Shown: one piece after another, positions 3,167 to 40,296 of the stretch
How positions within the stretch are numbered: position 1 is the stretch's first letter
Layout: each line of letters begins with the position of its first letter
IMG/VR virus record: IMGVR_UViG_2571042438_000008
Strand: one strand, 5' to 3'
Origin: a virus
Lineage: Duplodnaviria > Heunggongvirae > Uroviricota > Caudoviricetes
Length of the DNA stretch: 47,797 nt
The notes under the pieces: model-generated
Told to the model about the DNA's origin: nothing
The model's input: only the letters and a program-made list of their open reading frames with translations
The model's database searches: none
Translations under genes and position numbers: made by a program

Positions 3167-3783
3167 TGGCATTCAGAATGAGTGAACAATCACGTACCGT
3201 AAAAATTTATAACCTGCTGGCCGGAACTAATGAGTTTATTGGTGAAGGTGACGCATATATTCCACCTCATACAGGGCTGCCAGCTAATTCTACAGATATC
3301 GCCCCACCGGAAATTCCTGCTGGCTTTGTGGCAGTTTTTAACAGTGAAAATGAATCGTGGAATATTGTTGAAGACCATCGTGGTAAAACGGTCTATGACG
3401 TGGCGTCGGGGGACGCATTGTTTATTTCTGAACTCGGACCGCTACCAGAGAATGTCACCTGGTTGTCGCCAGCAGGGGAGTATCAGAAGTGGGACGGCGT
3501 ATCCTGGGTGAATGATGAGGAAGCAGAAAAACTGTTTCGGATACGGGAAGCGGAAGAGAAAAAGGCAAGGTTGATCCAGGAAGCAACAGATAACATCGCA
3601 ATTCTGCAGGATGCAGTTAATCTTGAAATAGCAACAAACGAGGAAAATTCACAACTGGATTCCTGGAGAAAATACAGAGTATTAGTGAGTAGAATTGACA
3701 CCAGTACAGCTCCGGATATCGTATGGCCAGAGCTGATGAATCAGGGTTATGTTCGGGAGGACGAGCAGATAACTTCAGACTGA
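3166..3783 (+). CDS. Tail fiber assembly protein (gpG/Tfa-like)
   Basis: Start overlaps the fiber stop (TAATG); size and position typical of Tfa chaperones. Confidence 0.65.
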
Positions 3784-4310
3784 AATTTAGTGATGAATGT
3801 TGAATCATCAGGAATATCATGCAATACCAATGCATGAGCACCTATTGTGACATTGTTTCCTATACGCACTTTGCCACCAAGAATGGTGGCATTACAACCA
3901 ATGGTCACATTATGCCCTATAACAATATCCATATCATTAAATTCCCCGCGAAGTCCAATAGTTACTCCGGGCTTAATTGAACAATTTTCACCGATTGTTA
4001 CTTTGTGACCGATAACAACACTGTTGAGATAAGAAATATCAAAGCCTTTCCCTATATTTACAGTTAAAGGGACTGTTACATTATATTTATCAAGAATGAA
4101 ACGTTCTATTTTTCCCGCAATCTTCCGACAGTATCCGCCTTTATCAAAAAGGTATTTGGCTATGCGCCACCAAAATAAATAACGAACCCTTCTATGTTTT
4201 ATTGCGCGAACAATTGCCTTTCGCCAGGAGAAAGGACGCTCGCTACCGATTACTTCATAGTGAATACAGTCTTTAAGTTCATTAATATTCATATCTTTAT
4301 TATTCAGCAT
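3747..4310 (-). CDS. Hexapeptide-repeat (left-handed beta-helix) acetyltransferase, moron-like
   Basis: Repeated [LIV]-G-x-x-x-x hexapeptides ([47 protein letters not shown]); opposite strand to the tail operon. Confidence 0.6.
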
Positions 4311-4740: not shown

Positions 4741-4780
4741 TATGATTGTGGGTGTCTGGTTGGAAAGTGACCAGATATGG

Positions 4781-4861
4781 AAACAAAAAGCCCGCAGATA
4801 AATCTGCGGGCTTCTTGCGACATCCACGGAAAACCAACAACTAACCATGGGCGCCTCGACA
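4781..4861 (-). ncRNA. Candidate CopA-like antisense RNA of the repA leader (~80 nt)
   Basis: Minus-strand perfect -10 TATAAT (plus coords 4868-4873) with weak -35; minus-strand intrinsic terminator (10-bp GC-rich stem 4789-4812 followed by a U-run); lies inside a 16-bp inverted repeat of the leader (4823-4838 / 4875-4890). Confidence 0.45.
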
Positions 4862-4905
4862 ACTCCCATTATACGTTGGTTTTCCGTGGACGCAAGAGCG
4901 AACAT

Positions 4906-5754
4906 ATGGATAGACCAATGCCGTCTCTACGTTCAGCTTACGTTTGTAATTTGTCGCCGGAGTTCCAGCCTCCAAAGCACCATACGCACAAGCTGCCGCT
5001 GGTGTTATCTGATGCTTTACAGCGCATTAATGGGCGTGATCTTACGTGTGAGGTTGCGTTCTACGTTAATCAACCGTCAGAGCGGAAGCGCCGGATAAAC
5101 GAGCATCGTCGTCGGGCGATTAATGCTGTGATCGCTGCGATTTTGCACCATGTAAACATCATTTCTAAGCGGGTTCTGGCCAGTGCTGAGGCGTTGGCTG
5201 ATTTTTGCGGCCTGTCTACCGTATCCGAAGCTGGGAACAAGTCTATAACGCGCTGTACAAGGGCGTTGTCGCAACTGAAAGCGTTAGGTTTTATTGATTA
5301 TGAACGTCGCTGGGATCGGGTGAATAAACAGTATTGGCCAGCGAAAATAGAGATTCGTGATCAACTGCTGGAAACCGTTGGTATTACTGAACAAGCATGG
5401 AGACGTGCGGTTAGCCAGAAACTTAATTACTTCAATGCGAAGAATAGCGAACGGCTTAAAAAAGCGATAACGGAGGCTGATTATAAGCGTATTGTTATTC
5501 AGGAGCAGATGGAGAATGTATGGCATCAGAGGAAGACGGCCAGAGAGATAAAGGCAAAACAGAAAGCAGCGGAGAGAGCTGCGCGTCTTGTTCGGGAAAA
5601 GGGAGAGGCCGAACTTCGTCATCAAATCACTAGAGAGGTTAGCCAGGAATTTGCTGATGGCATGTATCCTGGAGCTGACCTTGCATATTTACGATCCCTC
5701 GTTGAGCAGCGTTATAACAGGTTAAGAAAGACCTGGAAATCACTCCAACATTAA
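4906..5754 (+). CDS. repA: Replication initiator RepA, IncFII (RepFIIA) family
   Basis: Translation aligns with R100/R1 RepA1 as recalled (RRRAINAVIAAIL..., SITRCTRALSQLKALGFIDYE vs SITRATRALTFLSELGLITYQ); start chosen at the in-frame ATG 4906 by length; the ORF is open upstream to 4777. Confidence 0.85.
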   Translation: MDRPMPSLRSAYVCNLSPEFQPPKHHTHKLPLVLSDALQRINGRDLTCEVAFYVNQPSERKRRINEHRRRAINAVIAAILHHVNIISKRVLASAEALADFCGLSTVSEAGNKSITRCTRALSQLKALGFIDYERRWDRVNKQYWPAKIEIRDQLLETVGITEQAWRRAVSQKLNYFNAKNSERLKKAITEADYKRIVIQEQMENVWHQRKTAREIKAKQKAAERAARLVREKGEAELRHQITREVSQEFADGMYPGADLAYLRSLVEQRYNRLRKTWKSLQH

Positions 5755-5895
5755 CCCACCTGAATGATGAATCCGGTTTTACCGGAGGATTATCTACGTC
5801 GCAATAAAATATCTGTTCAAAAAACAATCTAAATTAATTTTCTCTAAACCGGAACACAGCAAAAATATCGCCTTTACAGGCATCGGCTAATAAAG

Positions 5896-5904
5896 TTATC
5901 CACA
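5896..5904 (+). promoter_or_regulatory. DnaA box TTATCCACA in the candidate oriR downstream of repA
   Basis: Perfect 9-mer consensus ~140 bp after the repA stop in an AT-rich tract, followed by a GC-rich hairpin cluster (6004-6200). Confidence 0.5.
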
Positions 5905-6385
5905 GTTTTGATATGTATATGCAAATGGTTTTTTATAATAGATGCACTAAACAAATAAATGCAAAATCACTTTCTTTTATTAAGACTTTCTTTATTTAAC
6001 TTACGCAGGCTTTGCCTGTGAATATGTTCGCCCTTGCAGCGAGCTAAAGCTCGCGCCGGTTCGAGTCGCTACGCTCAAATATACCTCCTCCGGCACTTGC
6101 CGGAGGCATGGAGCAGCCTGATCATCCTTTTCGAAACGGCGCGTTTCGAACTATACAAAATCAATTTATATAAGGCCGAAATAAGGCCTACGGCCGGGCT
6201 TTGCAGGAGGAAGGGGCGAGCCTTATCAATAAACGTCGAGAAATACGCACACAGTAGCCATCAGAACGCGATAAAACGTAAGAAACATCATTTCCTATTA
6301 GACATAGAAAACTTGTCTTATACGCAATGTAGTAAATTTCTATTGCCACATAGGAAAAGATTTCCTACCATCGTAGATATAATAA

Positions 6386-6685
6386 ATGGAGATGGTTATG
6401 GATAAAGATACTGTTTTAAAAATGTTGAATCCGGCTTGTTTAAAAAAAGCGGATGAATGGGAATCTCCTACATGTGGAGAAGTTCGGGCAGTCATTGGCC
6501 TCACCGGAATGAGTGGCTCGCAGTTGGCCAAAAAACTAGGCTTAAAAGATAGTCGCAATGTTCGCAACTGGCAGATGTTAAAGGAGTCCACATCCAGATC
6601 CAGCATTCCGTATGCAGCCTGGGCGCTGCTGTGTTACTTCGCTGGGTTAGGGTTAATCTTCATTGATAACAAAACAGATGTTTGA
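6386..6685 (+). CDS. Small XRE-type HTH protein with hydrophobic C-terminus
   Basis: HTH-like segment LTGMSGSQLAKKLGLKDSRNVRNWQ; C-terminal AAWALLCYFAGLGLIFI. Confidence 0.4.
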   Translation: MEMVMDKDTVLKMLNPACLKKADEWESPTCGEVRAVIGLTGMSGSQLAKKLGLKDSRNVRNWQMLKESTSRSSIPYAAWALLCYFAGLGLIFIDNKTDV

Positions 6686-7141: not shown

Positions 7142-7216
7142 AGCCCCGTTTTTCTTGAAATTATAACCCACAGGTTATATAGTTAGTGATATAAACTACA
7201 GGTTATAGGATTGAGC

Positions 7217-7564
7217 ATGTGGACGGTACTTTTTAGCCAGCGATTTGACGACTGGCTAAATGAGCAAGAAGACGCTCTTCAGGAAAAGGTTTTGGCTGAT
7301 TTGAAAAAGCTACAGGTTTACGGACCTGAGTTACCCAGGCCATATGCCGATACCGTAAAAGGTTCTCGGTACAAAAATATGAAAGAGCTTCGCGTTCAGT
7401 TTTCTGGCCGTCCGATAAGAGCCTTTTATGCGTTCGATCCGATTCGTCGGGCCATCGTTCTTTGTGCAGGAGACAAAAGTAACGATAAGCGGTTTTATAA
7501 AAAACTGGTGCGTATAGCTGAGGATGAGTTTGCAGCACATCTGAACACACTGGAGAGCAAGTAA
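7217..7564 (+). CDS. Type II toxin, HigB/RelE-like (addiction module killer family)
   Basis: ~115 aa basic protein immediately upstream of, and overlapping (TAATG), an XRE-HTH antitoxin-like gene; AGGA RBS before ATG 7217. Confidence 0.55.
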   Translation: MWTVLFSQRFDDWLNEQEDALQEKVLADLKKLQVYGPELPRPYADTVKGSRYKNMKELRVQFSGRPIRAFYAFDPIRRAIVLCAGDKSNDKRFYKKLVRIAEDEFAAHLNTLESK

Positions 7565-7863
7565 TGAGAACATTAGATGAGGTGATTGCCAGCCGTTCAC
7601 CTGAAAGCCAGGCGCGAATTAAAGAAATGGCAGATGAGATGATTCTTGAGGTCGGCTTGCAGATGATGCGTGAAGAACTCCAGTTATCACAAAAACAGGT
7701 TGCTGAGGCGATGGGTATAAGCCAGCCAGCAGTAACAAAGCTGGAGCAGCGCGGAAATGATTTAAAGCTGGCGACATTAAAGCGTTACGTTGAAGCTATG
7801 GGAGGCAAATTAAGCCTGGATGTTGAGCTTCCTACAGGAAAGCGAGTAGCGTTCCATGTCTAA
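7564..7863 (+). CDS. Type II antitoxin, HigA-like XRE-family HTH
   Basis: HTH segment LSQKQVAEAMGISQPAVTKLE; 99 aa; toxin-first gene order. Confidence 0.6.
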   Translation: MRTLDEVIASRSPESQARIKEMADEMILEVGLQMMREELQLSQKQVAEAMGISQPAVTKLEQRGNDLKLATLKRYVEAMGGKLSLDVELPTGKRVAFHV

Positions 7864-23030: not shown

Positions 23031-23199
23031 TATATATTTCTATAATTATATAAATATATAGTTACAACATTCTATGCGCTTTTCTCATGGGCGCACGCAT
23101 CAACCATGTTTGTCTGATATGCCGCCGCGCCCAAAAATCCTGAATTTATTGGCTGGGATTTTCGTGCGCGGCGCCACACCAGACAAACAGATCAAATAT

Positions 23200-39774: not shown

Positions 39775-40296
39775 TTGAGCAATCAAATTCCTGAGAGACT
39801 TATTAACTTTACAGTATACGGTGAGGGAAACCGTATTATCGGTGTTGCTGACGCAAAGCTGCCATCAATTGAGATGATGACAGAAACTGTTAGTGGTGCA
39901 GGTATCGCTGGAGAGCTTGATAGCGGAACGCTGGGGCATTTCAAACCAATGACTGTCTCTCTTAAATGGCGAACTCTGACCTCTGCTGGTACAAAATTAT
40001 TTCTATCCTCATCGCATCAGGTAGATTTTCGCGGTAGCCAGCAGGTTTATGATGCCGGAACAGGAAAATATAAAACGGTTCCTATTCGAGCTTCAATGAA
40101 GCTAAATCCTAAAAAACTGGATTTGGGTTCGCTACAGGTAGCAAAGGCCACTGATTCAGAAAATGAATTCGAAGTTCTCTATATCAAATTATTTATTGAT
40201 GGGAAAGAAGTCTTAGAAATTGATAAGTTGAACTTTATTTGTATCTTTGATGGCGAAGATATATTAAAAACTGTTCGTGATGATTTAGGTTTATAA
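39775..40296 (+). CDS. Tail tube protein
   Basis: 173 aa; between sheath and chaperone. Confidence 0.65.
   Translation: MSNQIPERLINFTVYGEGNRIIGVADAKLPSIEMMTETVSGAGIAGELDSGTLGHFKPMTVSLKWRTLTSAGTKLFLSSSHQVDFRGSQQVYDAGTGKYKTVPIRASMKLNPKKLDLGSLQVAKATDSENEFEVLYIKLFIDGKEVLEIDKLNFICIFDGEDILKTVRDDLGL

Follow-up and report, generated by a model that had tools for sequence, protein, structure and literature searches.

A putative IncFII-type replication origin with a conserved hairpin module downstream of repA in a phage-plasmid

We analysed the region downstream of the initiator gene repA in the IMG/VR record IMGVR_UViG_2571042438_000008, a stretch of 47,797 nucleotides from a virus of the Caudoviricetes (the window; all positions are those of this stretch). 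With a probability of about 0.65, we read positions 5896 to ~6224 as the vegetative origin (oriR) of an IncFII-family theta replicon that carries G4-type single-strand priming signals on the leading-strand template. An earlier note, made from the letters of the sequence, had proposed a candidate oriR at this place, composed of a DnaA box and a cluster of GC-rich hairpins. The origin itself appears to be of the ordinary IncFII type, albeit unannotated, and the part that may be new is an irregular hairpin of 37 nt.

The evidence comes from a comparison of the repA-downstream regions of R100 (locus L007) and about 24 other IncFII-family replicons. This set includes Salmonella and metagenomic phage-plasmids, pKPC_UVA01, IncFII(K) and pGDT4, as well as plasmids of Proteus, Citrobacter, Pantoea, Yersinia, Serratia, Kluyvera, Mixta, Erwinia and Fukatsuia. 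A protein scan of viral contigs with a single RepA as query contributed two useful divergent relatives. Scanning a genome collection with the pattern GCAGCG-N10-16-CGCGCCGGTTCG proved largely uninformative because the pattern is too GC-rich: nearly all of the 120 matches were chance occurrences in high-GC genomes, and the useful loci were three from Enterobacterales (L022, L030 and L058).

Core origin downstream of repA

Directly upstream of the candidate origin, and in the same orientation, lies the gene for an initiator of the IncFII RepA family. The encoded protein matches the Pfam profile PF02387 with an E value of 1.2e-43, and the match extends over residues 52–318 of the open reading frame (ORF) that starts at 4777 and over 271 of the 275 profile positions. 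The candidate origin follows this gene and opens with a DnaA box. The earlier note had located a consensus box about 140 bp past the repA stop. The distance is 141 nt, and the entire 47.8 kb contain no perfect DnaA box other than TTATCCACA at 5896–5904. Since matches with at most one mismatch are not enriched in the window (11 seen, 13 expected), it is position and conservation that lend weight to this box. A forward DnaA box occurs in most of the 21 related replicons examined, 133–210 nt upstream of the conserved 37-nt hairpin, and R100 contains TTATCCACA 176 nt past its own repA stop.

Downstream of the box, two to three (A/C)TGCAA repeats are found in every clade compared; the three copies in the window are candidate RepA-binding sites (Table 1). 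The box and the first repeat are separated by 15 nt in most replicons, whereas members of the phage-plasmid clade have 25 nt (5905–5920 in the window). The ten additional base pairs correspond to one helical turn, such that the helical phase between box and repeat is preserved. Distal to these repeats lies an A+T-rich region with a GC content of 0.23–0.25 over 5890–6009, compared to 0.52–0.58 over 6010–6159. This tract contains two direct 15-mers, ACTTTCTTTTATTAA at 5969–5983 and ACTTTCTTTATTTAA at 5985–5999, and repeats of the TCTTTTAAA type occupy the equivalent place in R100 and its relatives. The tract ends at hairpin 1, which likely marks the right edge of the minimal origin. In related replicons, TGTGGATAA is found ~20 nt before the conserved 37-nt hairpin and constitutes the inverted DnaA box of many of them. 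We also considered hairpin 1 as the A-site of an ABC primosome and rejected this assignment, since the inverted box TGTGAATAT is degenerate and just its first 4 nt fall within the stem.

The order of post-repA hairpin, forward DnaA box, TGCAA repeats, A+T tract and hairpin with inverted DnaA box is common to R100 and about 20–24 other IncFII-family replicons from at least ten genera. The first of these elements, a hairpin followed by GGAGGC...CACGTCTG, recurs in R100, IncFII(K), Kluyvera and the Salmonella relatives despite very different RepA proteins, and the window copy (5772–5795) is probably the counterpart of the CIS element of R1, i.e., a CIS-like spacer. The boundaries of the region can be approached from an independent side: the Salmonella relative with ~86% RepA identity aligns with the window at 75% identity over 5894–6208 alone, and both flanks are unalignable. 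This alignment delimits 5894–6208 as a functional block independently. Because the layout is homologous to R1/R100-type origins, positions 5896 to ~6026 most likely correspond to the core origin, an oriR of the R1/R100 type. Together, the RepA family and the shared order of elements support the earlier proposal that the DnaA box sits where an IncFII-type origin is expected. In R1, DnaA binds its box only with RepA bound immediately downstream (PMC5883639).

Table 1. Features in and around the candidate origin (positions in the window; strand left empty where none is assigned)
Feature	Position	Strand	Remarks
repA, IncFII_repA-family initiator	4906–5754	+	PF02387; RefSeq start at 4777; stop codon 5752–5754
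Hairpin TCCGG-TTTTA-CCGGA, then GGAGG...ACGTC	5772–5786 (motif region to 5795)	+	read from sequence; directly after the repA stop
Consensus DnaA box TTATCCACA	5896–5904	+	repA-proximal origin edge; 141 nt past the repA stop
A+T-rich tract, presumed unwinding element	5905–6003		composition and direct repeats
Three TGCA(A/C) repeats, candidate RepA-binding sites	5917–5970 (TGCA at 5920, 5943, 5960)	+	phased; kept across clades
Hairpin 1, CGCAGGC-TTT-GCCTGTG (6004–6020), with overlapping inverted degenerate DnaA box TGTGAATAT (6017–6025)	6004–6025		
Family-conserved irregular 37-nt hairpin	6028–6064	-	6-bp stem (6039–6044 with 6049–6054), TTTA loop, outer helices
Stem-loop II (SL II), CCTCCGGC-AAGT-GCCGGAGG (minus strand)	6087–6106	-	stems compared in 24 replicons
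Stem-loop III (SL III), TTCGAAACG-NNN-CGTTTCGAA	6130–6150	-	perfect hairpin; compensated variants in two other clades
Overlapping GGCC hairpins, AGGCC...GGCCT (6173–6189) and GGCC-TAC-GGCC (6184–6194)	6173–6194		specific to the phage-plasmid clade
Candidate primer-start element, minus-strand CCTCCTGCAAAGCC at 6210–6197, CTG 6206–6204 (T 6205)	6196–6224	-	G4/alpha3 consensus

Conserved hairpin module

The earlier note had counted at least five GC-rich hairpins within ~200 bp, downstream of the DnaA box. We found perfect Watson–Crick hairpins at 6006–6018 (5 bp), 6039–6054 (6 bp), 6087–6106 (8 bp), 6130–6150 (9 bp) and 6173–6189 (5 bp), in agreement with the coordinates given there to within 2–3 nt. 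These five hairpins contribute 33 stem base pairs between 6000 and 6215, as opposed to 0.82 hairpins and 4.4 base pairs in shuffled sequences, and none of 2000 shuffles reached the observed values. Folding of the whole region gave z-scores of -2.5 and -3.1. The comparative evidence presented below likewise identifies the cluster as a conserved structural module that exceeds chance and is under structural selection. A 123-residue ORF (6034–6405) was rejected as a gene, as it has no family match and crosses the hairpins.

The most widely conserved element is the 37-nt hairpin. In the window, 6029–6063 reads CGCCCTTGCAG-CGAGC-TAAA-GCTCG-CGCCGGTTCG, and a distant BLAST search with this element matched 206 plasmid records. 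At least 24 distinct IncFII-family replicons contain the hairpin, and in each it lies immediately past the A+T tract and ~270–370 nt after the repA stop. An alignment of 15 distinct replicons (alignment A2) revealed strong covariation: 98.5% of the cells in the 13 pairs are paired, eight of these pairs have changed on both sides in compensatory fashion, and the inner stem exists in eight different versions. No shuffle out of 500 paired as well, and registers slid along the alignment pair in 25–46% of the cells. The loops are invariant or nearly so, as are a G/G mismatch, an internal AA/AA loop and the one bulged T (the minus-strand base at 6038) within 5'-CTGCAAGG. The flanks of the hairpin are also nearly invariant while the RepA proteins of the same replicons share 16–37% identity. 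Because flanks and loops are so constant and the RepA proteins so diverged, an invariant reader of this hairpin is implied to be a host factor.

SL II, 13–35 nt from the 37-nt hairpin, is present in every replicon compared, R100 included; the 24 replicons contain 16 distinct stems, and all of them pair. SL III has compensated variants at the same place in L139 (GCGAAAAG/CTTTTCGC) and L161 (ACAAAACG/CGTTTTGT), and is absent from the pKPC_UVA01 clade. Within the more narrowly distributed GGCC hairpins, GGCC-TWC-GGCC is retained in L003 and L135 only.

The downstream region of R100 does not contain the 37-nt hairpin. When R100 (L007, 40010–40080) is compared to its close relatives L058, L005 and L141, a gap of ~52 nt appears between hairpin 1 and SL II. 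In lacking this segment, the textbook R100 origin is the exception in the family. We tentatively consider that a conserved host replication protein may read the 37-nt hairpin as a single-strand DNA signal not described so far, although we would give this idea less than an even chance. In that role it could serve as a second, origin-proximal primase start or as a cue for helicase or primosome loading. If the hairpin is such a signal, it would be standard in most Enterobacterales IncFII-family origins and would have been overlooked since the model plasmids R1 and R100 happen to lack it.

Strand assignment, priming and rival explanations

If synthesis runs rightward and away from repA, as it does in R1 (PMC5883639), the minus strand of the window is the leading-strand template. 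An element that resembles the complementary-strand origins of the phages G4 and alpha3 is located on this strand. According to the GenBank record of G4, the complementary-strand primer begins at the T of a CTG, just 3' of stem-loop I. A homologous origin exists in alpha3, and the two phages have CCTNCTGCWAAGCC in common at the primer start. The minus strand of the window at 6210–6197 fits this G4/alpha3 consensus exactly, and none of 100 whole-window shuffles produced a match. A local alignment of the minus strand with the alpha3 origin scored 34, compared to a null of 17.1 (standard deviation 2.1; 0 of 300 reached the score), and continues into the 3' half of stem-loop I. The plus strand showed no significant similarity to the same origin. 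Smith–Waterman comparison of the G4 origin with the downstream regions of six replicons gave nothing significant save for the 14-mer of the window; the signal from alpha3 was the clearer one. When phages were searched by BLAST for diverged origins of the G4 type, all matches were relatives more than 90% identical to G4, which provide no conservation profile.

The 5'-CTG-3' at 6206–6204 thus stands in a G4/alpha3-like template context, and a short AAGG...CCTT stem precedes it on the template. A primer started at T6205 is predicted to read pppAGGAGGAAGG... and to grow away from repA. A second CTG (6039–6037, in CTGCAAGG) ends the 37-nt hairpin and has this hairpin, SL II and SL III on its 5' side. 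Similar motifs recur among the relatives: in 12 of 13 replicons of the proximal type, the module ends with a C-rich CCTG-NA(A/G) motif at +150 to +178 nt, and in Pantoea this motif lies at +247. R100-type replicons carry the motif ~400 nt beyond the position of the conserved hairpin, within a strongly conserved block with GC hairpins; in R100 itself it lies 550 nt past the DnaA box. The G-site of R1, a leading-strand start used by primase alone, reportedly lies ~400 bp past the 188-bp oriR. The CCTG motif of R100 presumably sits at about the position of this G-site, and hairpin 1 of R100 at about what we take to be the end of the 188-bp minimal oriR.

Wobble pairs provide a hint as to which strand folds. 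The internal wobbles of SL II read as G–T on the minus strand only, with G–T recurring at stem position 4, and the wobble cells of the 37-nt hairpin comprise five G–T pairs on the minus strand versus two on the plus strand. These observations are suggestive of the minus strand as the folding strand, but not decisive.

Combining these elements, we propose that RepA from the adjacent gene would bind the three TGCA repeats beside the DnaA box and, together with DnaA, open the A+T tract. DnaB would then unwind to the right, away from repA, and the displaced minus strand would fold into hairpin 1, the 37-nt hairpin, SL II and SL III. Folded in this way, the strand could hold the bubble open, position SSB and expose a primase start, so that DnaG alone would prime the leading strand at a G4-type 5'-CTG. 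T6205 is the likeliest start, with the bulged T6038 as a second option. Leading-strand synthesis would proceed rightward and unidirectionally; replication of R1 is of the unidirectional theta type (PMC5883639). The binding of RepA and DnaA, the direction of replication, the action of the hairpins as single-stranded DNA and the role of primase as their reader are all steps that we infer by analogy with R1/R100. The conservation and covariation of the hairpins and the minus-strand G4/alpha3 consensus support the suggestion of the earlier note that they could be single-strand initiation signals.

Several observations weigh against this interpretation. The CTG at 6206–6204 is preceded on its 5' side by just a 4-bp remnant of stem-loop I and has no conserved 5' sequence, and the strong hairpins lie 3' of it on the template, the reverse of the arrangement in G4. 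For a start at 6038, the likeness to G4 is limited to CTGCAAG, and this CTG is partly sequestered, with the C in a stem, the T bulged and the G paired. Folding energy also fails to help: the minus strand folds more stably at 17 of 18 and 14 of 14 loci, but composition-matched shuffles give -2.4 kcal/mol where -2.8 kcal/mol is observed, and the advantage is fully explained by base composition. Because this measure is uninformative, the strand assignment rests on few wobble pairs, the G4/alpha3 motif and geometry. Finally, perfect palindromes suit duplex binding by a dimeric protein as well as they suit hairpins.

This last point leads to a reading that we hold improbable, according to which the inverted repeats are palindromic duplex sites for RepA, for some other plasmid protein or for a host regulator that tunes origin firing or local transcription. 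The stems are perfect palindromes, a dimeric binder would likewise be expected to produce covariation that preserves the palindrome, and the clade differences of SL III could track a plasmid-specific protein. However, the 37-nt hairpin varies in its inner stem while its loops, bulge and asymmetric flanks are invariant across RepA proteins with 16–37% identity. G–T wobbles substitute for Watson–Crick pairs mainly on one strand (five minus versus two plus, and recurrently in SL II), and 16 SL II stems at one position are hard to square with a single binding specificity. Also unlikely, in our view, is a PriA-dependent primosome assembly site of the phiX174 type, where the 37-nt hairpin of the displaced strand would be read by PriA, which would assemble PriB, DnaT, DnaB and DnaC there. 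The irregular shape of the element, with its conserved internal loops and bulge, fits this proposal. Sites of the n' type have the look of irregular hairpins with little sequence consensus, a general likeness to the 37-nt element, and a conserved host protein is implied by the near constancy of the unpaired bases. On the other hand, an exact G4/alpha3 primer-start consensus sits on the same strand, and direct reading of the element did not reveal the AAGCGG-type motif of n' sites. R1 reportedly replicates independently of the phiX-type primosome, which we also set against PriA.

The earlier note had offered a structured small RNA as a further option, and this or a structured part of an mRNA would account for conserved and covarying secondary structure; the minus-strand pairs compatible with G–U would suit an RNA transcribed leftward. 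Yet the proposal found no support. A search of 5900–6300 against Rfam 15 with E values up to 10 gave only two eukaryotic matches at chance level (E 0.8 and 8.5), and neither strand contains a promoter-like site inside the module, nor is there one at its conserved edge. Just one terminator-like element was called, SL II on the minus strand; its T-run is weak and not shared by the relatives, so that no conserved terminator is left. Moreover, the sequence past the right edge of the module differs between clades, and the module is fixed in position relative to the A+T tract of the origin. We regard an RNA as very improbable. Equally remote is the case that DnaA box and hairpins are incidental and that the true origin lies elsewhere, for example upstream of repA or as a separate lytic origin of the phage. 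A single DnaA box is statistically unremarkable in 48 kb, but the same ordered elements follow repA in about 24 replicons of at least ten genera, the conserved block 5894–6208 has unconserved flanks, and R100, with its experimentally defined oriR, aligns element by element.

The element, its neighbourhood and its relation to known replicons

The surroundings of the origin are 99–100% identical to non-mobilizable E. coli plasmids of 47–49 kb (e.g. p142_C) and to the Yersinia myophage vB_YpM_44, and the first genes of the 47.8-kb window are phage tail-fibre genes. Based on the near-identity to the E. coli plasmids and to the Yersinia phage, the window is a phage-plasmid of ~48 kb. The same 351 bp were found in 71 of 5426 complete E. 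coli genomes, where they are plasmid-borne every time and annotated in none. The record of p142_C, the one record whose typing was read, carries no MOB-suite replicon type. The pSLy3 group of phage-plasmids is part of the SSU5 supergroup (PMC7969092); we did not adopt it as the identity of this element.

The RepA of the window is 86% identical to that of the Salmonella phage-plasmid relative, 37% to that of pKPC_UVA01, 26% to that of R100 and 16% to that of pGDT4. The Pfam match opens at residue 52 of the ORF annotated from 4777, and the Salmonella homologue begins at the equivalent of 4906; for these reasons the true start of RepA is probably 4906. The RefSeq start at 4777 falls within a strong minus-strand hairpin of terminator-like appearance (4784–4817). 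A further stem-loop precedes this hairpin, and 4781–4891 resembles a CopA-type antisense RNA gene. Rfam gave no CopA match upstream of repA; the 4784–4817 hairpin was matched only by way of generic terminator similarity.

To the right of the module, a 12-nt inverted repeat (6287–6298 and 6350–6361) brackets the only sigma-70-like site of the region (6343–6371), and the small ORF downstream of this site (6386–6685) has a faint match to helix-turn-helix or sigma-like proteins. The segment 6287–6371 resembles an operator under autoregulation. Some 1 kb past the origin, genes for a HigB-like toxin and a helix-turn-helix antitoxin (7211–7863) probably form an addiction module for plasmid maintenance; the toxin is annotated as HigB2 in the record of the Yersinia phage. 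On the other side, an acetyltransferase-like gene annotated as 'transferase' (3747–4310, minus strand) lies between a tail-fibre assembly gene and repA. At this position vB_YpM_44 carries a hin invertase and alternative tail-fibre genes, and since the phage holds different genes there, 3747–4310 can be seen as a variable cargo or host-range region beside the replicon.

These results place a candidate plasmid-mode origin in a phage-plasmid lineage found in 71 of the 5426 complete E. coli genomes, and replicon typing, the construction of mini-replicons and studies of copy number would benefit from a mapped origin. Many plasmids of the IncFII family with clinical importance, among them IncFII(K) and those of the pKPC_UVA01 type, have in common a hairpin module beside the origin that is strongly conserved and covaries; the textbook R1/R100 origin is without part of it. 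This module provides a testable handle on leading-strand priming in IncFII-family replicons.

Compared to the oriR of R1 and R100, the window contains an initiator of the same IncFII_repA family and an origin that lies past repA, after a spacer of ~140–180 nt which opens with a conserved hairpin. Both have one DnaA box at the repA-proximal edge, adjoining TGCAA sites and then an A+T tract, which is closed by a hairpin carrying TGTGGA; SL II and the C-rich CCTG motif on the template strand are likewise common to both. The R100 counterpart of hairpin 1 is CTGTCC-TGT-GGACAG, ~170–185 nt from the DnaA box (L007, ~40016–40030). The two systems differ in that the RepA proteins are only ~26% identical, the distance from DnaA box to hairpin 1 is ~131 bp in the window and 188 bp in the plasmids, and in the window the first repeat lies one helical turn farther from the box. 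Furthermore, the DnaA box and the CCTG start motif are ~310 nt apart in the window versus 550 nt in R100, and the 37-nt hairpin is absent from R100. We found no Ter sequence GTTGTAAC near the origin of the window, whose only two matches are at 23061 and 42098. R100-type replicons contain two oppositely oriented Ter-like GTTGTAACTA sites between the origin and the distal CCTG motif (L007, 40070–40095 and 40211–40230; equivalents in L005, L006, L141 and L148).

With the G4 and alpha3 origins, the window shares the exact CCTNCTGCWAAGCC with CTG on the template, a remnant of stem-loop I before it, GC hairpins clustered on the same strand, and a primer that would grow in the expected fork direction. 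The phage origins have three strong hairpins 5' of their CTG, whereas the best CTG of the window has its strong hairpins on the 3' side; the CTG at 6037–6039 has the topology of G4 but little likeness in sequence.

The hairpin module also resembles that of plasmids of the pKPC_UVA01 type, IncFII(K), pGDT4/IncFII(Y) and related Enterobacterales plasmids. Their RepA proteins are 16–37% identical to that of the window, and the pKPC_UVA01 clade differs by the lack of SL III. IncFII(K)-type replicons, unlike the window, carry Ter sites and have their CCTG motif far further out. In all records examined of the pKPC_UVA01-, IncFII(K)- and pGDT4-type relatives these regions are unannotated. All these plasmids contain the 37-nt hairpin with nearly identical flanks together with SL II, and the replicons of the proximal type also share the closing GCAGGA..GGGG motif at 150–178 nt.

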